A DNA stretch of 64,000 nt from Ferruginibacter sp. (GCA_019638635.1 JAHBTM010000006.1:4360-68359), one strand, 5' to 3'; positions 38,103 through 48,514 are shown, numbered from the stretch's first letter. The notes: a model not told the origin generated them from the sequence alone. Numbers and translations are program-made.

Positions 38103-39743
38103 TTATAAAAATAATTTGGTGATAAAGTACGTGATGGTAGCCAGCACGGCACTCACCGGAATAGTTAATATCCACGCCCAAACCAGGTTGATGGTAACGC
38201 CCCAGCGTACCGCGCTCAGTCTTTTGGTAGCACCCACCCCAATGATGGAGCCGGTAATAGTATGTGTAGTAGAAACGGGTATTCCCATTTGTTCGGTCAT
38301 GAACAGCGTCATAGCTCCAGATGTTTCTGCGGCTACGCCTTCCAGTGGGGTAACCTTGGTTATTTTTGTACCCATGGTTTTAATAATCTTCCATCCACCA
38401 CTCATGGTACCCAATGCAATGGCTGAATAACAGGCCAATGGTATCCAGTTGGGCATTTCCTTAATATCTACCAGCATTCCTTCAGCCACCATAGCTGCGG
38501 CTATGATACCCATTACTTTTTGGGCATCGTTGCCCCCGTGTCCAATACTGAAAATGGCAGAAGATAACAGCTGAAGTTTCTTGAACATGCTACCGGTACG
38601 CAGGGCACTGGGTTTGCGCATTTTCTCCACATAAAAGAAACTCAGGATAAAGATCAGCGCTATTGCAGCTATGCCATACCGTAAGTAGCTGTTATCGGCG
38701 CGCGCAATTTGTTTTTCGATGTCTTTTCTAAGGCTGATTCCATTGATGGCGGAAAGCAACTGGCGGTAATCTGCCGCGTGCAATCCCATAATGTTTCCGA
38801 TACTATCAGCCAGTTTTGTATTATCCATCACCCCATATTGAGCATAGAGGTGTGTGGTTTTTTCCACCAGTGCAAACATACTGTCGGCCTGTGGTTTGAA
38901 TTCTGGTTTTTGATCGGCTTTTCGTTTCAGTCCTTCCAGCCGGAATGTAGTATTCATCACATCCCTCATTTCAGGTTCACCCATACCCACAAGATATCCT
39001 CTGGATTCAATTTCGTTTGCGATGGCTACAGCCCCTTTCTTGTTGTACTCTTTTGCCAGCACCACCGAACTGTCGTATCGCAATCGAGCAATTTCATATT
39101 GAGCTGTACGGGAAGGATCTTTTTTCAGTTTATCTATCTGATAAAACTTGGCAAGATTTTCTTTAATCTTTCCTTGTTGAAGATAGTTAAACACCATCCA
39201 CACACCTGCTGTTGCCACTACGATGATGGCGGTTTTTAGCCAGAATCGCCGGTTGATTATGACCAGCGTGAGGAACATGGACACCAGCATACCTATGAGT
39301 GGCGCCAGGAAGATGAACAGGATGATTTGCAGTACCTTTTTATCTTCAATAATTTGTGAGATGCCGATGAATCCTTTTTTATCAATAGCATGCGCAATAG
39401 CCGCCCCTGCGAAACCACCGATAAGGGTGTGTGAAGAAGAAGAGGGGATACCATACCACCAGGTGAGCAAATTCCACGCAATGGCAGCAATAAGGCCGGA
39501 AAATATTACCGGGAGGGTAATGAATTCAGATTTTACTGTTTTGGCAATGGTATTGGCAACGGCGTGGTCTTTAAAGATGAAGAAGGCCACAAAGTTGAAA
39601 AAGGCTGCCCAGGCAACGGCCTGAAATGGAGTAAGCACCTTAGTAGAAACCACCGTAGCGATGGAGTTGGCCGCATCATGAAACCCGTTGATATAATCAA
39701 ACACCAGGGCGAGGAATATGATAACAAGAAGCAGAGTAGACAT
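38103..39743 (-). CDS. PiT family inorganic phosphate transporter with a large internal insertion
   Basis: NGFHDAANSIAT, GIPSSSSH, GHGGNDAQK, GGWKIIKTMG, GIPVSTTH; 546 aa because of a ~200-aa insert. Confidence 0.93.
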   Translation of the reverse strand: MSTLLLVIIFLALVFDYINGFHDAANSIATVVSTKVLTPFQAVAWAAFFNFVAFFIFKDHAVANTIAKTVKSEFITLPVIFSGLIAAIAWNLLTWWYGIPSSSSHTLIGGFAGAAIAHAIDKKGFIGISQIIEDKKVLQIILFIFLAPLIGMLVSMFLTLVIINRRFWLKTAIIVVATAGVWMVFNYLQQGKIKENLAKFYQIDKLKKDPSRTAQYEIARLRYDSSVVLAKEYNKKGAVAIANEIESRGYLVGMGEPEMRDVMNTTFRLEGLKRKADQKPEFKPQADSMFALVEKTTHLYAQYGVMDNTKLADSIGNIMGLHAADYRQLLSAINGISLRKDIEKQIARADNSYLRYGIAAIALIFILSFFYVEKMRKPSALRTGSMFKKLQLLSSAIFSIGHGGNDAQKVMGIIAAAMVAEGMLVDIKEMPNWIPLACYSAIALGTMSGGWKIIKTMGTKITKVTPLEGVAAETSGAMTLFMTEQMGIPVSTTHTITGSIIGVGATKRLSAVRWGVTINLVWAWILTIPVSAVLATITYFITKLFL

Positions 39744-39779
39744 GTCAGCTGTTTATACTTGGTGATAATTTCATAACGA

Positions 39780-40427
39780 TTACGCGTACTTGATGATGAT
39801 GCTCTCAATCACGTTGGAGGCATCTTCACACTTATCAGTTACAATTTCCATCACCTGATATATTTCTCTTTTCTTGATTACTTCTTTGGCATCAGGTTCT
39901 GTAGCAAACAGTCGTTCAATACTCATATCAAAAATATCATCCGCCTGGTTTTCAATACTGTTGATGGCAACCAGTGCATCGGTAATCTGGCGCATGTTTT
40001 TCATATTGCGCAATTCCGTAACGGCTTTATGAACCTGTACGGTACCTTCCTGTATCAACTCGCCCATTTTACGAATGCCCGGATCATCCGGATTTACATG
40101 GTAGAAGTTGATTTTTTTAACGGATGCATATATATAATCCGCAATATCATCCAGAGCGGAGGCCAGGTAGTGAATATCTTCCCGGTCGAAGGGGGTAATG
40201 AAATTTTTTCCCAGTTCAGTAAAAATGGAATGCGTTAAATCATCATTTACGTGTTCCAGGTCATCTACCTCCTTAATCAGTTTAGCACGCTCCTCATAAC
40301 TGGGCTCGTTGATGATATCCACTACTTTATCGCCCATCTTCACCAACACTTCCGCCACATTCTCAAACAACGCAAAGAAAACCCTGTCTTTAGGTAAGAA
40401 AATCTTCAAAATGGAGTTCAATGACAT
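39780..40427 (-). CDS. DUF47 (PhoU-like) phosphate transport regulator
   Basis: LEHVNDDLTH..F.EL...FITPFDREDI..LASALDDIAD, ENQADD, TDKCED; standard partner of PiT. Confidence 0.95.
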   Translation of the reverse strand: MSLNSILKIFLPKDRVFFALFENVAEVLVKMGDKVVDIINEPSYEERAKLIKEVDDLEHVNDDLTHSIFTELGKNFITPFDREDIHYLASALDDIADYIYASVKKINFYHVNPDDPGIRKMGELIQEGTVQVHKAVTELRNMKNMRQITDALVAINSIENQADDIFDMSIERLFATEPDAKEVIKKREIYQVMEIVTDKCEDASNVIESIIIKYA

Positions 40428-40443
40428 ATCCCTAAAATTTCGG

Positions 40444-40451
40444 CAAAAATA
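40444..40451 (-). promoter_or_regulatory. -7 box TATTTTTG for the DUF47-pit operon
   Basis: Exact TAnnTTTG match 16 nt upstream of ATG 40427. Confidence 0.6.
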
Positions 40452-40489
40452 ACCATACTATATCCTGTTCGATTTGCACTTGAAATTGA

Positions 40490-40536
40490 TAACATTTACA
40501 TAATATTCGGGTAATCTTAATTTCTTATTAGTTTTG
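40490..40536 (+). promoter_or_regulatory. Putative Pho-box array plus -7 box upstream of the porin
   Basis: TAACATT (40490), TAATATT (40501), TAATCTT (40512) at exact 11-bp period, then TAGTTTTG (40529-40536). Confidence 0.65.
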
Positions 40537-40541
40537 CGCAC

Positions 40542-41846
40542 ATGAAAATCAAGCAGATATATCTGGTTGTTGGGTTTGTGCTGATTACATTGGGTGGTAA
40601 ATCCCAGTTTCTGATGGACATGGTTGATACTACCTCGGGTTTAGGCAAAGCGTTCATCTCCATGTATGAGAATTATGGTAAAATTCGTATTACCGGATAC
40701 ATGCAACCCCAGTTTCAGGTGGCTAAATCTAAGGGGGCACCCAGTTTCATAGGTGGTGATTTTGATCCGGGCGTGAATAACCGCTTCATGTTGCGGCGTG
40801 GACGTATCCGCTTCGATTATCTGCATTTCCCTAAAAAACTCAATGGCCCGTCTCTTCAATTCGCCTTTCAGTTTGATGGTACTGAACGTGGAGTAAATAT
40901 CCGTGATTTCTGGGGCCGTGTATTTGAGAACCGGTATCAGTTGTTTTCATTTACCATGGGCATGTTTGCCCGGCCGTTTAGTTATGAGGTGAATCGTTCA
41001 TCGGTTGACAGGGAAAGTCCGGAGCGCGGACGCCTCACCCAATTGCTGATGAAAACAGAACGCGATATGGGGATGATGCTTTCCTTTGATCCAAGAGTAG
41101 AAAAACATAAATGGAAGTATCTTAAAGTGGATGCGGGTTTGTTTAACGGACAAGGTTTAACCTCGCCAAGGGATTACGACAGCCATAAAGATTTTATTAT
41201 GCGTGTTGCCCATAAACCCCGCATGGTGAGTAAAAATCTGGCATTGAGCGGGGCCGTTTCATATTTGAACGGAGGGTTGGTACAAAATACGCCTTACATA
41301 TACTCAACCCACACGGTGAATGGTGTAAAACAGGTAAAGGTAGATTCAACTACAACCAACGTTGGCAAAATTGCACCCCGTGATTATTATGGCGCGGATG
41401 CACAGGTGAAATGGCACCACAAGGCAGGAGTAACCGAGCTCCGCATGGAATATGTAAATGGAAAACAAACAGCCTCCGACCTAACTTCAGAAACACCCAT
41501 CCGCCTATTTACGGATCGTGAAGGATATTACATCCGCAATTTCGATGGTGGTTTCTTTTATTTGTTGCACAACATCTTTAATAAACAGCATCAGGTAATA
41601 CTCAAGTACGACTGGTACGACCCCAACACCAGTGTACAAGGAAAAGAAATTTCGCAGGGCAATCATTTTACCGGAGCCGATGTACGCTTCTCCACCTTTG
41701 GTGCGGGTTATGTGTATTATGTGAATGACCACCTTAAAGTAACAGCCTGGTACGATCATGTTCGAAATGAAATCACCGAGCTTCCCGGTTTTACAGAAGA
41801 CATCAAAGACGATGTATTCACGCTTCGCTTACAGTTTGAGTTTTAA
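40542..41846 (+). CDS. Outer membrane porin (phosphate-selective OprO/P-like)
   Basis: Signal peptide, FMLRRGRIRFDY, RDFW, MFARPFSYE..RSS..RESPERGR, terminal LRLQFEF; Pho-locus context. Confidence 0.75.
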   Translation: MKIKQIYLVVGFVLITLGGKSQFLMDMVDTTSGLGKAFISMYENYGKIRITGYMQPQFQVAKSKGAPSFIGGDFDPGVNNRFMLRRGRIRFDYLHFPKKLNGPSLQFAFQFDGTERGVNIRDFWGRVFENRYQLFSFTMGMFARPFSYEVNRSSVDRESPERGRLTQLLMKTERDMGMMLSFDPRVEKHKWKYLKVDAGLFNGQGLTSPRDYDSHKDFIMRVAHKPRMVSKNLALSGAVSYLNGGLVQNTPYIYSTHTVNGVKQVKVDSTTTNVGKIAPRDYYGADAQVKWHHKAGVTELRMEYVNGKQTASDLTSETPIRLFTDREGYYIRNFDGGFFYLLHNIFNKQHQVILKYDWYDPNTSVQGKEISQGNHFTGADVRFSTFGAGYVYYVNDHLKVTAWYDHVRNEITELPGFTEDIKDDVFTLRLQFEF

Positions 41847-41850
41847 TGCG

Positions 41851-41901
41851 TAACATTCCCGAAACATTACCGTAACACTTGCTTAACGGATTGTTTACCT
41901 G
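41851..41901 (+). promoter_or_regulatory. Putative Pho-box array upstream of the TonB-dependent receptor
   Basis: TAACATT (41851), AAACATT (41862), TAACACT (41873), TAACGGA (41884), TTACCTG (41895) at exact 11-bp period. Confidence 0.7.
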
Positions 41902-41943
41902 CAGTTCATGCAGCTTGTGTCTCTTTGCATCAAATAAAGAGGC

Positions 41944-44760
41944 ATGAGATTTTTTACGTTTTTATTGTGTGTATTAATATCAGGTGTAACCTATGCACAA
42001 AATGGATTGGTTGAAGGCCAGGTAATAGATGAAAGAACAGGTTATCCAGTAGCCGGTGTTTCAATACAAGTTTCGGGTGAAAAAACACAATTTGTATCTA
42101 ATCAGGAAGGACGCTTTGGCTTTAATTTACCTGCCGGGAAATCATATTCCATTATATTTTCATCAGTAGGGTTTTCAACAAAAGCAATAGATGATGTGCA
42201 GGTTGAAAAGGATAAGGTAAGTAACCTAACTGTGGCGTTAGTAAGAAAAGCAAAGGATGAAGAGGCGGTGGTAGTAAGAGCCAGTGCACGACGCGAAACC
42301 GTGAATGCCATGATTGTTTTTCAAAAGAACACCAATACTGTAGCGCAGGTGGTATCCGCTGAGGCCATTAAAAGATCACCGGACAGAAATACCGGTGAGG
42401 TTTTGAAACGTGTTCCCGGAACCAGCGTACAAGAAGGAAAGTATTTGATTGTAAGAGGTTTGGCCGACCGTTACAATCAGGCCATGCTCAATGGTATTTT
42501 GTTGAGCAGTACTGAACCTGACCGTAAAACATTCAGCTTTGATTTGTTTCCATCTTCCATCATTGAAAACATCGTTATCAATAAAGCCTTTATTCCGGAA
42601 TTACCCGGAGAGTGGGCCGGTGGGTTGGTTCAGGTAAATACAAAAGATGTTCCGGGAAAAGGATTTATGAATTTCCAGATTGGCACCGGTTTTAACACGG
42701 CTACCATTGGAAATGATTTTTATTCGTATCGTGGAGGCAAAACCGACTTTCTGGGTTTTGATGATGGCACCAGAAGTATTCCGGGTGCATTACCGGTGAA
42801 ATCATCTTTCAATCAGTTATCAACACAACAGAAGACGGAATGGGGTAAGCAGTTTAAAAACATATGGACTGCCAATCCTCTGAACAACAGATTAGCCGGT
42901 GTGTTGAATCAGTCAGTGCAAATCAATGGCGGATTTAAAAAATCTCTTGGAAAAAACAATTCACTTTCTGCCTTACTGGGTGTGAATTACAACCGCAGCA
43001 ATCGTCGTTCCTCCTTCGTAAACCGCATTTACTCCATTCAGAATAATACAGCAGATATCAACTTTGATTACAATAACGAAAAGTATAGTACCGATATTCT
43101 TGCAGGTGCCATGGCGAACTTTACTTTACAGTTGGGGGTTAACCATAAAATTTCATTCAAGAACATCCTCAATGTAAATACTACAGATTACGCAACCATC
43201 AGAACCGGAAAAGATTTTGAGACAGATCCCATTGTGGGTGATAATATACGTGCCACTGAGTTAGCCTTTAAAGCCAATACTTTTTTCAATACGCAAATTG
43301 CCGGCGACCATTACATCAAGCCGTTGAAATCGAAATTGCATTGGTATGGAAGTTTCAACATTTTAGATCAGCATATACCTGACCAGCGACGCGTTCAATA
43401 CAATCAGCTCAATCCTAATGATCCCAATTCACCCTTTGCTTTGTTGGTCAGTTCTTCCAAAACATCACAAAAGAGCGGCAGCAGATACTTTGGTTTCTTA
43501 AGTGATTATAATTATACAATGGGGGTTAATCTTTCTCGCCCGTTTCAAATCGGGCAAAGGGTACATAACGTGAAAGCCGGATATTTCTTTCAGGTAAAAG
43601 ACCGGTTATTCGATAGCCGCCCGTTTGCAATTTATTTGCCCGTGGATAATCCTACCCTTCGTTTAATGGATCAGGCCAGTGTGTTTGCTCCCGAAAATTT
43701 TGGAAACGGATTTGATAACCTTTTTGCCTTCAACGAAATTTTTGATTATCGTTACCGGTATGTAGCTAACTCCATTTTGAATGCAGGATTCCTGCAGTTC
43801 GATCAGCCCGTTGGAGAAAAGACAAGAATTGTGTGGGGTGCAAGATTGGAACATTTCGATCAGGTTGTGGGCAGCATGGAGAAAAACGATCCCCGCCATG
43901 TGTATTCCAAAAAGAAGGATGTGTTACCGGGCATGAACCTTACCTACAAACTCAATAACAAAACCAACATTCGTGTTTCAGCATCGCAAACGGTGATTCG
44001 TCCAGAGTTCAGAGAATTGAGTGCATTTAGTTTTTATGATTTTGATTTAGGTGCTACGGTAACAGGTGAACCGAATCTTGTCCGCACCAAAGTAACGAAT
44101 GCGGATATACGCTACGAACTCTATCCGGCAGGTGGTGAAATGTTAACCATGGGGGTGTTCTATAAATATTTTAAAAATCCGATTGAATTGTTTTTTAATC
44201 AGTCGGGTGCAGGCAGCAGCAGCACATTCAACTACCTGAATGCTACAGAAGCCAGCAGTTATGGTGCCGAGCTGGAATTCAGGAAGAAACTGGATTTTAA
44301 TCAGGCGTTGAAAAACTTCACAGCGCATGGAAACGTATCGTACATCTACAACCGTATTCCCGGGTTAAACCGTCCCATGCAGGGGCAAAGTCCTTATCTT
44401 TTAAATCTGGGGTTACAATATGATTTACAAAAGCATGGATTGAGTACAACCGTGTTGTTTAACCAAATTGGAAGAAGAATTTATTATGTAGGAACTGCTT
44501 CAAACACAGGACAGGTAATCAGTGATAACTATCCACCGGTTTGGGAAGCACCCAGGGCTATACTCGATTTTCAGGTATCTAAAAAAATTATCCAAAACAA
44601 AGGTGAGTTGAGATTAAATGTATCAGACATACTCAATCAGAAAGCAAAATTCTATCACGATCTCAACGGAAATAAAAAATATGATAAGAAAGAAGATGCA
44701 CTCGCTATCAGAAGAATTTACGGCACCAATATTTCAATCTCATTCGCCTACGGGTTTTAA
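41944..44760 (+). CDS. TonB-dependent receptor
   Basis: Signal peptide, carboxypeptidase-regulatory-like N-domain, plug (LKRVPG, VRGLADRYN, DLFPS), barrel, terminal YGF. Confidence 0.95.
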   Translation: MRFFTFLLCVLISGVTYAQNGLVEGQVIDERTGYPVAGVSIQVSGEKTQFVSNQEGRFGFNLPAGKSYSIIFSSVGFSTKAIDDVQVEKDKVSNLTVALVRKAKDEEAVVVRASARRETVNAMIVFQKNTNTVAQVVSAEAIKRSPDRNTGEVLKRVPGTSVQEGKYLIVRGLADRYNQAMLNGILLSSTEPDRKTFSFDLFPSSIIENIVINKAFIPELPGEWAGGLVQVNTKDVPGKGFMNFQIGTGFNTATIGNDFYSYRGGKTDFLGFDDGTRSIPGALPVKSSFNQLSTQQKTEWGKQFKNIWTANPLNNRLAGVLNQSVQINGGFKKSLGKNNSLSALLGVNYNRSNRRSSFVNRIYSIQNNTADINFDYNNEKYSTDILAGAMANFTLQLGVNHKISFKNILNVNTTDYATIRTGKDFETDPIVGDNIRATELAFKANTFFNTQIAGDHYIKPLKSKLHWYGSFNILDQHIPDQRRVQYNQLNPNDPNSPFALLVSSSKTSQKSGSRYFGFLSDYNYTMGVNLSRPFQIGQRVHNVKAGYFFQVKDRLFDSRPFAIYLPVDNPTLRLMDQASVFAPENFGNGFDNLFAFNEIFDYRYRYVANSILNAGFLQFDQPVGEKTRIVWGARLEHFDQVVGSMEKNDPRHVYSKKKDVLPGMNLTYKLNNKTNIRVSASQTVIRPEFRELSAFSFYDFDLGATVTGEPNLVRTKVTNADIRYELYPAGGEMLTMGVFYKYFKNPIELFFNQSGAGSSSTFNYLNATEASSYGAELEFRKKLDFNQALKNFTAHGNVSYIYNRIPGLNRPMQGQSPYLLNLGLQYDLQKHGLSTTVLFNQIGRRIYYVGTASNTGQVISDNYPPVWEAPRAILDFQVSKKIIQNKGELRLNVSDILNQKAKFYHDLNGNKKYDKKEDALAIRRIYGTNISISFAYGF

Positions 44761-44788
44761 ATTTTAACATATAAAATAAGCATACAAC

Positions 44789-46201
44789 ATGAAAAAGGTA
44801 TTATTAGGGTTAGCCATTGTAACGGCCGTTTCGCTGCAATGCCGCAAAATTGAAGTAGATGGAGAGGGTGGTTCCAACATACCAACCGATCCCACCGAAA
44901 ATGTTATCTTAGAAGGAAGGATAACGGAGAACCGTACACTAAAAGCAAATTTTACATATAAACTGCGCGGACTGGTTTATGTTACAAATGGTGCCATCCT
45001 CACCATAGAACCCGGAACTAAAATTGTGGGGGAATCGGGAAGAAATGGCGGCCTCGTTATTACCCGCAGCAGCAAGATTATAGCTGATGGAACTCCTGAA
45101 AAACCTATTGTATTTACCTCTGAAGAATCTACACCAGCACGTGGCGACTGGGCCGGTGTGGTTATTCTGGGAAATGCTCCCACCAATGCCTCATTCAACG
45201 GTATTCAGGGGGTGGGTGAAATTGAAGGAGGAATCAATAACAGTGATGGTTTAGGTTTGTATGGAACGCCTATTACACAGCAACAAAACCCCGCAGACAA
45301 CAGCGGAATCCTGCGGTATGTTAGAATTGAATATGCAGGATATGCATTTTTACCCGACAAGGAAATCAACAGCTTAACGCTGGCCGGTGTGGGAAGTCAG
45401 ACTGTAATCAACCATGTGCAGGTATCGTATGCCAATGATGATGCTTTTGAATTCTTTGGTGGAACCGTGAACGCTTCACATCTCATTGCCTACAAAACAC
45501 TGGATGATGATTTCGACACCGACAATGGCTACAGCGGAAAAATTCAATTTGGTATTGTGTTGAGAGACAGCGCAGCAGCCGATATCAGTAAAGTGGAAGC
45601 ATTCGAAAGTGATAATGATGCCAATGGAAGTACTTTAACGCCATTAACCAAAGTGGTATTCAGCAATTTTACCGTACTGGGTCCGCGTGCAACCACCGCC
45701 AACACAGGGAACAATCTCTATCTCGCTGGTGCGCAAATCCGCAGAAATTCAAGCATGAATTTGTTTAATTCAATTATTGCAGGATGGCCAGTGGGTTTAT
45801 TGATTGATGGCAGTAAAGGTTCTCCAACAGATTTAAATATTACCGGCACGACACCCACATTATTTGTTCAAAATACAGTAATCTCCGGTTCTCCAGATGG
45901 ATATGCCGTTCGGTATGCGCCTAGTGCTTCTAATCCAACCGGTAGTACACATCAATCCATGCTAGACTGGTTCAATACACCATCGTACAATAACACCATT
46001 CTTGCAACCAACAGTGCATTAGGGTTAACCGATCCATTCAATTATAACAATCCTGATTTTAACCCGGTACCCAACGCTTTGGTGGCTACAGGAGCCAGTT
46101 TTACTCATCCGAATGTTGCCTCCGGTTTTACATCGGTGAGTTATCGTGGTGCTTGTGCGCCTGGAGATACGTGGTGGAAAAACTGGACCAGGTTCAATTA
46201 A
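44789..46201 (+). CDS. Surface lipoprotein, probable right-handed beta-helix
   Basis: Lipobox SLQ-C, DNSGILRYVRIEYAG, DDAFEFFGG, DDDFDTDNGY, FESDND acidic repeats; cotranscribed with the receptor. Confidence 0.8.
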   Translation: MKKVLLGLAIVTAVSLQCRKIEVDGEGGSNIPTDPTENVILEGRITENRTLKANFTYKLRGLVYVTNGAILTIEPGTKIVGESGRNGGLVITRSSKIIADGTPEKPIVFTSEESTPARGDWAGVVILGNAPTNASFNGIQGVGEIEGGINNSDGLGLYGTPITQQQNPADNSGILRYVRIEYAGYAFLPDKEINSLTLAGVGSQTVINHVQVSYANDDAFEFFGGTVNASHLIAYKTLDDDFDTDNGYSGKIQFGIVLRDSAAADISKVEAFESDNDANGSTLTPLTKVVFSNFTVLGPRATTANTGNNLYLAGAQIRRNSSMNLFNSIIAGWPVGLLIDGSKGSPTDLNITGTTPTLFVQNTVISGSPDGYAVRYAPSASNPTGSTHQSMLDWFNTPSYNNTILATNSALGLTDPFNYNNPDFNPVPNALVATGASFTHPNVASGFTSVSYRGACAPGDTWWKNWTRFN

Positions 46202-46232
46202 CAGCGTTCTCGTATTAGGTTTATATATATTC

Positions 46233-46266
46233 AATCCCCCTTCCTGTTCTCAGGAGGGGGTTTTTT
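46233..46266 (+). terminator. Intrinsic terminator after the lipoprotein gene
   Basis: CCCCCTTCCTG/CAGGAGGGGG stem followed by T6. Confidence 0.75.
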
Positions 46267-47323
46267 ATTCGGAGGCGCTGGCTTTTTTGGATAGTGTAAA
46301 TCCGAAGGTGGAACCCACATCTACTTTACTGCGTACATGAATGGTTTGTCCATGGGCTTCAATAATGTGTTTGCAAATAGACAAACCCAACCCGCTGCCA
46401 CCGGTTCGGCGCGCGCGCGCTTCATCGGTGCGGTAGAAACGTTCAAACAAACGCGAGAGCTGGTCTTCGGCAATACCAAAACCATTGTCGCTGATTTCGG
46501 TGAGTACCCGGTTGTCATCCAGATTGTAAAAACTGGCTTCAATAATGCCTTCCATTTTGCCGTATTTAATGGAGTTCTCTATCAGGTTGGTGATCACCTG
46601 TCTGATTTTTTCTTTGTCGGCATACACCGTAAGAGGAGATTCGCATCCCTTCTTAATAAAGGCTTTAATCTTTTTTTCCCGCAGATGTATATCTAATGAT
46701 TCAAACACTTCCAATACCAGATCCTGAATCACAAAATTTTTCTGATGCAGTTTTACCTGCCCGCTTTCCAGCGATGAAATTTCATCCAGGTCATCCAATA
46801 AATTTACCAACCGTTCTACATTCCTTGAAGTGTTTTGTAAAAACTTCGTGTTTACCTCATCGTTGTGTAATGCGCCGTTGAGTAGGGTTTCCACATAACC
46901 CTGAATGGCAAACACCGGAGTGCGCAGTTCATGTCCGAGGTTTTGAAGAAACTCTTTTCTGAATGCCTCATTCTTGCGTAAAATTTCTACTTCCTGTTTC
47001 TTTTGTTGTGCCCAGGATTCCACATCGGCACGAACTTCTTCTATGCCTTTTTGCGGCAACAGATTTTTATAATAAAACTCCTCTTTCTTACTCGCCTTGG
47101 TTTGGTAAATGAGTTTATAAATCAGTTTTATTTTACGGTAAATAAATGTTTGAAGCGTAAACAAAATCAATCCGTAACTGCCGGCAAAAATGACCATAAA
47201 AGACAACAGGGCAATCCACCAAACCGGTTTAAAAATAAAAATACCGGTGGCTATAGGCAGCGAAAGGATAAATGCGGTGAAGAGCGATAACTCCTGGGGA
47301 GTAAAACTTTTATTTCTGAACAT
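46265..47323 (-). CDS. phoR: PhoR-like sensor histidine kinase
   Basis: Two N-terminal TM helices with no periplasmic domain, NLGHELRTPVFAIQGYVETL, NLIENSIKYG, FERFYR, GGSGLGL; symbol assigned from context. Confidence 0.8.
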   Translation of the reverse strand: MFRNKSFTPQELSLFTAFILSLPIATGIFIFKPVWWIALLSFMVIFAGSYGLILFTLQTFIYRKIKLIYKLIYQTKASKKEEFYYKNLLPQKGIEEVRADVESWAQQKKQEVEILRKNEAFRKEFLQNLGHELRTPVFAIQGYVETLLNGALHNDEVNTKFLQNTSRNVERLVNLLDDLDEISSLESGQVKLHQKNFVIQDLVLEVFESLDIHLREKKIKAFIKKGCESPLTVYADKEKIRQVITNLIENSIKYGKMEGIIEASFYNLDDNRVLTEISDNGFGIAEDQLSRLFERFYRTDEARARRTGGSGLGLSICKHIIEAHGQTIHVRSKVDVGSTFGFTLSKKASASE

Positions 47324-47349
47324 GTACCGAAAAATTTCATATACATGCG

Positions 47350-47357
47350 CAAAGATA
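47350..47357 (-). promoter_or_regulatory. -7 box TATCTTTG for phoR
   Basis: Exact TAnnTTTG match upstream of the kinase gene. Confidence 0.6.
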
Positions 47358-47404
47358 CTTCATTTATACACACCGGCTTTTCCACCCCCATTTATACATA
47401 TGAC

Positions 47405-47562
47405 GAAATCATACGATTTCAACCCTGTAGGAGCATGTGCCATGAATTCAGGGGCTGTCACTATACTAACCACGGCTCAACATCAGTACCGGCCATATAT
47501 CGCAAGTCCGATTCCGAAAGCTTTCAGAATCCGGCAGACCTTCAGCAGCAGAATCAACAGGG
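47405..47562 (-). other. Structured non-coding stretch between phoB and phoR
   Basis: Hairpin GAUUCUGAA(AGCU)UUCGGAAUC at 47510-47531, extendable with G-U pairs on the - strand; second hairpin GAAATC/GATTTC at 47405-47420; CCCTGT/ACAGGG ends at 47423 and 47557. Confidence 0.35.
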
Positions 47563-47687
47563 CCCATCATATTTTCGTGTAGGCGTAATGGTTAATATCA
47601 ATGTTAGTGTAAGCAGGTAGATTCGGGCAATGGTACAAGCAAGCCTGTCTCAAAATCAGCGCCATATATGAATACCCGCTGATGGTA

Positions 47688-48365
47688 TTAACCGGTGAAT
47701 TTGTAACCCACACCTTTCACCGTAGCAATACAATCCATATCAAGCTTCTGACGAATTTTTCGGATGTGTACATCAATGGTACGGTCGCCCACGATGACTT
47801 CGGTGCCCCATACCTGATTTAATATTTCGTTGCGCAGAAAAACCTTTCCGGGTTTAGAGGCGAGTAATGCCAGCAGCTCAAATTCTTTTCGGGCCAGTAC
47901 AATGTCGCGCCCTTTCACCGTTACCAGAAAACGTTCACGATCAATTTTTAAATCGCCTGCTATCAATACTTTGGCATCATCGCTTCCAATCCTCCTGAAC
48001 AGTGATTGAACTTTGCTAAGTAAAACATTCGGACTAATCGGTTTGTTAAGGAAATCATCAGCCCCGGCTTCCAATCCCCTGATTTCAGAATTATCATCGC
48101 CCAGGGCCGTCAAAAAAATGATCAGGGTATGTTGAAATTCCGGCTGAAGCCTGAGTTGCTGACAAACCTCAAAACCATTTTTCATCGGCATCATGGCATC
48201 CAGAATGATCAGGTCGGGCTGATAAAATTTAGCCAACTCCAGGGCTTCGGCACCATTTTTTGCGGTCATCACTTCATATCCATCCTTCCGCAAATTGAAC
48301 GAGATGATCTCCAGGATATCCGGTTCGTCATCCGCAATCAGTATTTTACCTTTTATCATAATCAA
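47688..48365 (-). CDS. phoB: PhoB-like OmpR-family response regulator
   Basis: ILIADDEPDI, LIILDAMMP, GADDFLNKP, RTIDVHIRKIRQK, TVKGVGYKF; symbol assigned from context. Confidence 0.8.
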   Translation of the reverse strand: MIMIKGKILIADDEPDILEIISFNLRKDGYEVMTAKNGAEALELAKFYQPDLIILDAMMPMKNGFEVCQQLRLQPEFQHTLIIFLTALGDDNSEIRGLEAGADDFLNKPISPNVLLSKVQSLFRRIGSDDAKVLIAGDLKIDRERFLVTVKGRDIVLARKEFELLALLASKPGKVFLRNEILNQVWGTEVIVGDRTIDVHIRKIRQKLDMDCIATVKGVGYKFTG

Positions 48366-48373
48366 CGGTTTTG

Positions 48374-48429
48374 CAAAATTACTTGTTGCTCAAGCGTTAA
48401 CCGGTTGTTATAATATTATCAAATTGTTA
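48374..48429 (-). promoter_or_regulatory. phoB promoter with putative Pho boxes (autoregulation)
   Basis: On -: TAACAAT (48429) and TAATATT (48418); TAACAAC (48410), TAACGCT (48399), CAACAAG (48388); 11-bp spacing within each group; then TAATTTTG (48381-48374). Confidence 0.6.
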
Positions 48430-48514
48430 AACGCCCGGTGTTTAATCTGTAATTTGAATGCGTCTGTTTCGTACAGATGTTAAATAATCGGCATCTTTGC
48501 AGTTAAGATAAGAC

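Follow-up and report, generated by a model that had tools for sequence, protein, structure and literature searches.

How a bacterium organises its response to inorganic phosphate (Pi) when the usual phosphate pump and its PhoU partner are missing is the question raised by a locus of Ferruginibacter sp. (order Chitinophagales, phylum Bacteroidota; soil/water). The locus, at positions 38103-48430, belongs to a window of 64,000 nucleotides (GCA_019638635.1, JAHBTM010000006.1:4360-68359), the whole stretch of DNA that was analysed and to which the coordinates refer; the assembly comprises 127 contigs, is estimated to be 97.5% complete and is not closed. The seven contiguous genes named in the original prediction, which was made from the sequence alone, are all found as open reading frames with matching domains (Table 1), and its view of them as a phosphate-related module with a PhoR/PhoB-like pair is supported, the pair being regarded here as real PhoR and PhoB. 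The locus is almost certainly the core Pho-regulon cluster of a Ferruginibacter lineage devoid of pstSCAB-phoU. Its best overall explanation, which we consider probable, is that of a Pst-less Pho locus in which PhoR/PhoB and shared promoter boxes are combined with a porin, a transporter-lipoprotein pair, the importer PitA, and PitR as a candidate coupling protein.

The lack of pstSCAB and phoU, noted in the original prediction for the window, extends to the whole genome. Neither a PhoU domain nor PstC is found in it, and the best PstB candidate genome-wide reaches 170 bits, below the cut-off of 343. The PhoU, PstS, PstC, PstA, and Na/Pi-PhoU proteins of relatives, used as tblastn seeds, have no match in the genome, in which pitA and the DUF47 gene (pitR) are each single-copy by tblastn. 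Of 24 further Ferruginibacter genomes, 23 are likewise without PhoU, including several with a completeness of 100%, while pst-phoU is present in one congeneric genome (G022). The synteny map with a close relative (locus L070), whose kinase and lipoprotein are 73% and 69% identical to those of the window, locates the difference precisely. In L070, pstS-pstC-pstA-pstB-phoU, the five products of which all exceed the NCBIfam cut-offs, stand exactly between the lipoprotein gene and phoR, whereas the window possesses at this position only a contiguous junction of 63 bp. That the absence is an artefact of a fragmented, unclosed draft, and that a normal pstSCAB-phoU operon controlling PhoR is hidden in missing contigs, would agree with the operon being present in G022 and L070, but this explanation was rejected and is next to negligible, because five independent markers are missing together, PhoU is lacking in 23 of the 24 other genomes of the genus, even in complete ones, and the site filled in L070 is contiguous and empty in the window. 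By its gene content, the Ferruginibacter lineage appears to have lost pstSCAB-phoU, the usual high-affinity phosphate pump.

The histidine kinase is, from its distribution and gene context, clearly identifiable as the genuine PhoR ortholog of its order. Among 151 high-quality genomes of the order, 145 possess exactly one ortholog, with a length of ~345-380 residues, paired in nearly all loci with a PhoB-like regulator. In many PhoU-containing genomes, at least nine, the kinase gene abuts phoU; in one of them, G176, Pfam analysis reveals the order porin-pstS-pstC-pstA-pstB-phoU-kinase, while in other lineages the kinase gene is found near a Na/Pi-cotransporter-PhoU fusion. The phoB gene likewise adjoins PhoU/Pst genes in relatives. 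According to hydropathy and Pfam analyses, PhoR comprises two transmembrane (TM) helices with a turn of 3 residues between them, a linker of ~55 residues, and the DHp and CA domains. No PAS domain match was found in PhoR, and there is no room for one, since only ~55 residues separate the second TM helix from HisKA. The original prediction had pointed to the missing periplasmic sensor domain. This is correct, although it is not a distinctive trait because the canonical PhoR of E. coli also lacks such a domain; the difference lies in the missing PAS. An origin of the short architecture as a response to the loss of Pst was considered and dropped: the kinase has the identical architecture where it adjoins phoU in relatives, so that the short, PAS-less form is ancestral in the order.

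The shared repeat boxes reported in the original prediction at three promoters proved to be real. They consist of TAAC/TAAT units 11 bp apart (Table 1), and their conservation was assessed by histograms of the spacings between TAAY words over orthologous promoters from 140 loci. In the transporter promoters (n=75), the frequencies for spacings of 11, 22, and 33 bp are 14.3, 10.0, and 7.0 per kb, against a background of 0.6 per kb. The peaks at these spacings reach 10-25 times background in orthologous promoters, from up to 75 other genomes. Porin promoters exhibit a similar signal, DUF47 promoters display it in the reverse orientation, and phoB promoters harbor a smaller 11-bp peak (5.0 vs 0.66 per kb); the 11-bp value for 906 other genes in the loci is 1.0 per kb. 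Three or more units in register are present in 55% of transporter, 50% of porin, and 42% of DUF47 promoters, compared with 4% for other genes. Upstream of phoB, the motif TTAACAAT-N3-ATAAT is kept in five relatives.

A position weight matrix (PWM) trained on relatives only, with the unit consensus GGTAACATTTC, was scanned over the whole genome. Array 1 ranks first (25.9) and positions 41849-41881, within array 2, rank second (25.8). The next-best intergenic arrays of the genome are C41:1416-1448, ahead of an operon of a Metallophos_2 phosphoesterase and a glycosyltransferase (PlcP/Agt-like); C61:19134-19166, ahead of the gene of a PhoH-like ATPase; and C109:5222-5254, ahead of a gene of the PcrB family (GGGP-synthase-like). 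The spacing histograms and this PWM replaced two simpler scans: a strict genome scan for three exact TAAY units at 11 bp, which gave no excess over other spacings, and a two-unit pattern, which gave mild intergenic enrichment only. The TAAC arrays have the architecture expected of Pho boxes and are candidate binding sites of PhoB; the 11-bp unit provides a candidate Pho-box consensus for the group.

The AlphaFold2 (AF2) model of the porin (pLDDT 70) has OprP (2o4v) as its best PDB match (E 2e-12, TM-score 0.55), general porins being nearly as good. Sequence searches of the porin and of the lipoprotein against the PDB returned nothing usable, and with a porin profile the match to OprO was no better than E 0.09. 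PF07396 is nevertheless carried by ~40% of the porin homologs at 58-63% identity, and in G176 (locus L027) the pstSCAB-phoU-phoR operon opens with the gene of a homolog of 37% identity. The TonB-dependent transporter (TBDT) and the lipoprotein are paired in 67 of 79 loci, and in a sizeable minority of these loci the pair lies beside phoBR, pst, phoU, or pit-DUF47 (the kinase gene in 16, the DUF47 gene in 13). Over 600 loci encoding members of the lipoprotein family are found, in Bacteroidota as well as in Ignavibacteria. Its conserved acidic motifs are DDxxEFFGG and DDDFDTD; the AF2 model of the window's member is a right-handed beta-helix (pLDDT 81.5, pTM 0.85) with weak structural matches to beta-helix lyases, epimerases, and tailspikes. 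In the vicinity of phoBR, the window thus has the combination that defines the Pi-starvation pairs of PUSIII/IV, namely a TBDT carrying PF07715, PF13715, and PF14905 and, after it, a lipoprotein of pectin-lyase fold. The pair, counterpart of the Pi-starvation-induced Tbdt/FII pair of Flavobacterium johnsoniae, probably captures a phosphorus-containing substrate, and it may be seen as a widespread system (more than 600 loci) tied to phosphate genes. Copies next to phoBR in Chryseobacterium spp. (Flavobacteriales; two loci) are 52-58% identical to those of the window, which hints at lateral transfer of the pair, since they are closer than many Chitinophagales copies.

Some observations weigh against these identities. 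The porin has no Pfam match, even at E 10, and therefore misses the PF07396 model. PhoR remains below the curated PhoR models (TIGR02966, 210 vs 334; NF053855, 165 vs 500; NF008235, 153 vs 390), its alignment to them being limited to the C-terminal 230 residues, that is, the DHp-CA half; PhoB remains below its own (TIGR02154, 213.5 vs 296.2; NF053854, 203.6 vs 270). These scores, together with the likeness of the lipoprotein fold to polysaccharide lyases and epimerases, could be read as signs that the pair and the two-component system serve the uptake of a substrate without phosphorus, such as a glycan or a metal, the TAAC arrays binding another regulator. We consider this very unlikely, given that both in Bacteroidota and in Ignavibacteria the pair recurs beside phoBR, pst, phoU, or pit-pitR, that few genes respond to Pi depletion as strongly as its counterparts in F. 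johnsoniae, that the same boxes precede the PhoH gene and the PlcP-like lipid-remodelling operon, and that relatives have the kinase ortholog in one operon with phoU.

PitA and PitR are, respectively, the only recognised Pi importer and the only PhoU-fold protein in the genome. PitR is a single PF01865 domain (residues 15-213 of 215), within the family range of ~205-230 residues. A gap of 36 bp separates pitR from pitA on a shared strand, and the pairing is kept in every relative examined. Hydropathy analysis of PitA reveals a soluble insertion of ~165 residues between the two halves (residues ~190-352), flanked by extra hydrophobic helices. PiT proteins encoded beside DUF47 range from 330 to 590 residues across the order, with 383 residues in one genome of the same genus.

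Whether PitR also informs PhoR, the Pst-independent sensing route suggested in the original prediction, is the more delicate part of the question, and the interpretation given there is supported in part only. The 151 genomes were sorted by their PhoU-like accessory (approximate counts): DUF47 only, the state of the window's genome and the commonest one, 43; PhoU and DUF47, 31; PhoU only, 12; NptA-PhoU only, 29; NptA-PhoU and DUF47, 4; and none, 32. Of the 78 DUF47-bearing genomes, 13 have the DUF47 gene at a distance of no more than ~12 kb from phoR, far above chance. In four genomes, one of them of the same genus, pitR-pitA stands immediately beside phoR on the same strand; such neighbourhoods occur in at least three different gene orders, and in the genus g46 pitR-pitA takes the slot held by pstSCAB-phoU in G176 and G152. 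In one of the four genomes, which is devoid of PhoU (locus L026, G144:C13, 9137-14187), pitR-pitA-phoR share one strand with gaps of 10-11 bp and follow genes for DUF2490, DUF4956, and VTC-domain proteins, which together resemble a polyphosphate-polymerase set. A precedent is found in S. aureus, in which loss of PitR raises PhoPR output in Pi-replete cells and PitR depends on its cognate transporter for this action (Vermilya et al. 2026, PMC13170248).

Several observations, however, weigh against this link. Almost all of the accessory-free genomes (31 of 32) keep the PhoR ortholog; in this order PhoR is evidently able to function where a PhoU-like partner is missing. Both DUF47-PiT and Pst-PhoU are encoded in 31 genomes, and in the family f5 pit-pitR is divergent from pstSCAB-phoU-phoBR; the window may hence keep an old supercluster minus Pst, with pitR near phoBR as a relic. 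The box in front of pitR mostly faces away from this gene, and PhoB might therefore repress pitR-pitA or not control them. In two-hybrid (BACTH) assays, S. aureus PitR makes no contact with PhoR or with the transporters (PMC11705898).

Much of this evidence would fit an explanation in which PhoR senses the intracellular phosphorus status alone and PitR only gates PitA, its position being a leftover of a pit-pitR/pstSCAB-phoU/phoBR supercluster from which pstSCAB-phoU was deleted. The 31 genomes with a PhoR ortholog and neither PhoU, PitR, nor NptA-PhoU, several of which carry a ~470-residue PiT without DUF47, are in line with it, as are the f5 layout and the filled site of L070. Cytoplasmic signals are reported to activate PhoR in Salmonella (PMC11389368) and to shape the Caulobacter response (10.1101/2023.10.07.561339). 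Against it stand the S. aureus genetics, where PitR restrains PhoPR while total cellular Pi is unchanged (PMC13170248), and the recurrence of pitR-pitA beside phoR in at least three gene orders, with replacement of pstSCAB-phoU in g46, which is more than a passive relic predicts. Sensing by PhoR alone is a serious possibility that stops short of being probable. Coupling of PitA to PhoR by PitR in Ferruginibacter is, on comparative grounds, a tentative proposal of about the same likelihood. The stronger proposal, that in Pst-less Chitinophagaceae a minimal PAS-less PhoR receives its only transporter-coupled input from PitR-PitA, which would make it a natural single-input Pho system, seems doubtful. 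As sister genomes have this PAS-less PhoR in one operon with PhoU, accessories of the PhoU fold would then have to act on PhoR outside a PAS domain, for instance through the membrane helices, the linker, or DHp.

With PitR retained as the leading candidate, the cluster may be envisaged as follows. Upon Pi limitation, the minimal, membrane-anchored, PAS-less PhoR would phosphorylate PhoB, which would then bind head-to-tail on the TAAC(A/T) arrays of 11-bp period. PhoB would activate its own operon, the OprP-like anion porin, and the TBDT with its beta-helix lipoprotein, the divergent region of the porin also serving pitR-pitA. Periplasmic Pi would be imported by PitA, the sole Pi importer, and PitR may, in the manner of its S. 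aureus counterpart, tie the activity of PitA to PhoR repression under abundant Pi.

Two further features surround phoB. The spacer between phoB and phoR is unusually long, with 364 bp where most relatives have -4 to 80 bp. It holds a hairpin-forming dispersed repeat of ~100 nt with the conserved core CCGGCCATATATTnCAAGTCCGGnCCCGAAAGCTTTCnGGATCCGGCAGCCC, of which at least six other copies, on six contigs of the genome, display 76-85% identity; Rfam gave nothing credible in the region 36-52 kb, this repeat included. On the other side, a secreted protein without Pfam family is encoded divergently from phoB and shares its box-bearing intergenic region. Throughout the family its gene is conserved next to phoB (33-59% identity; loci L010-L020 and six others), and it may belong to the Pho regulon.

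Table 1. Features of the phosphate locus and its borders, with positions in the window.
Feature	Positions	Strand	Characteristics
pitA, PiT-family Pi/H+ symporter, 546 aa	38103-39743	-	Pfam PHO4, E 7.8e-97, full profile
pitR, DUF47/PhoU_div, 215 aa	39780-40427	-	PF01865, 75 bits vs cut-off 24.4
Candidate Pho-box array 1, three 11-bp units: GATAACATTTA CATAATATTCG GGTAATCTTAA	40488-40520	+	Divergent pitR/porin intergenic region, points to porin
OprP/OprO-like outer-membrane porin, 434 aa	40542-41846	+	Signal peptide, C-terminal Phe, beta-barrel
Candidate Pho-box array 2, four 11-bp units: CGTAACATTCC CGAAACATTAC CGTAACACTTG CTTAACGGATT	41849-41892	+	In front of the transporter gene
TonB-dependent transporter, 938 aa, not SusC-type	41944-44760	+	Pfam CarbopepD_reg_2, Plug, OMP_b-brl_3
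Surface lipoprotein, 470 aa	44789-46201	+	Lipobox SLQC, right-handed beta-helix model
Convergent lipoprotein gene/phoR junction, 63 bp	46202-46264		Empty compared with relative L070
phoR, minimal histidine kinase, 352 aa	46265-47323	-	Pfam HisKA and HATPase_c only
phoB-phoR spacer with dispersed repeat	47324-47687		Repeat core ~47449-47551
phoB, OmpR-family response regulator, 225 aa	47688-48365	-	Best NCBIfam matches are PhoB models; alternative ATG start at 48359
Candidate Pho boxes 3, two two-unit boxes: TTAACAATTTGATAAT, ATAACAACCGGTTAACGC	48394-48430	-	Upstream of phoB, intergenic region shared with the divergent secreted-protein gene
Secreted protein, 475 aa	48515-49942	+	No Pfam family

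Parts of the locus resemble systems of distant bacteria. The porin shares with the phosphate- and pyrophosphate-selective porins OprP and OprO of P. aeruginosa a similar length, OprP as the best match of the modelled fold, which may be a 16-strand barrel, and homologs in PF07396, besides conserved Arg and Lys columns and the linkage to the Pho regulon. It differs from them by an identity of only 14-15% and by missing the Pfam model. With the E. coli PstSCAB-PhoU-PhoR/PhoB system, the locus shares a two-TM kinase devoid of a periplasmic sensor, an OmpR-family regulator, and candidate operators in the form of 11-bp direct repeats, and the E. coli-like arrangement is found in relatives, where the same PhoR ortholog is operonic with pstSCAB-phoU. 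In contrast, the window's genome is devoid of Pst and PhoU, the box core is TAAC(A/T) instead of CTGTCAT, and PhoR lacks the PAS domain, which in E. coli PhoR is said, after work by Gardner et al. in 2014-15, to be the contact of PhoU. The S. aureus PitR-PitA system is similar in having a single-domain PF01865 protein encoded beside pitA and in the proposed restraint of a Pi-responsive kinase with the cognate transporter. However, S. aureus belongs to another phylum and also possesses Pst-PhoU and NptA-PhoU, whereas PitR-PitA stands alone in the window's genome, and PhoR of the window lacks the PAS and extracytoplasmic parts.

The closest counterpart is found in the plant-associated Bacteroidetes, which mount a strong Pi-depletion response even without PstSABC (Lidbury et al. 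2021, PMC8115612). The PhoBR operon, or PUSIV, of the Pst-less F. johnsoniae (Fjoh_0541-0549) encodes a glycosyltransferase, OprP (pf07396), PhoR (pf00512 and pf02518 only), PhoB, Tbdt, and FII, the last five being Fjoh_0542-0546; under Pi depletion, its Tbdt (pf07715, pf13715, pf14905) and the pectin-lyase-fold lipoprotein FII show log2 fold changes of 8.0 and 9.9 (PMC8115612). Compared by domain sets and description, both clusters occur in a Pst-less host and comprise an OprP-type porin, a PAS-less PhoR, PhoB, a TBDT, and a pectin-lyase-fold lipoprotein, the Pfam set of the window's transporter being that of the Pi-induced Fjoh_0545. The window's cluster differs in its gene order, in the addition of pitR-pitA, and in the lack of a glycosyltransferase gene; a candidate box-bearing PlcP/glycosyltransferase operon is located on another contig, and its Metallophos_2 and glycosyltransferase families are those of the PlcP and glycosyltransferase lipid-remodelling genes in the F. 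johnsoniae Pho regulon.

The cluster type is thus already published from F. johnsoniae, and the proposed sensing route through PitR has a precedent in S. aureus, a member of another phylum. As far as can be judged from gene content, the locus is a clear but fairly ordinary example, the Chitinophagaceae version of the PhoBR operon with pitR-pitA added. It suggests that the Pst-less phosphate handling of plant-associated Flavobacterium also holds in Chitinophagales. Its residual novelty would lie in a natural system where only PitR-PitA feeds a PAS-less PhoR, if true. One importer, one accessory, and a minimal kinase would offer a simple natural system for dissecting how a PhoU-fold partner contacts PhoR.

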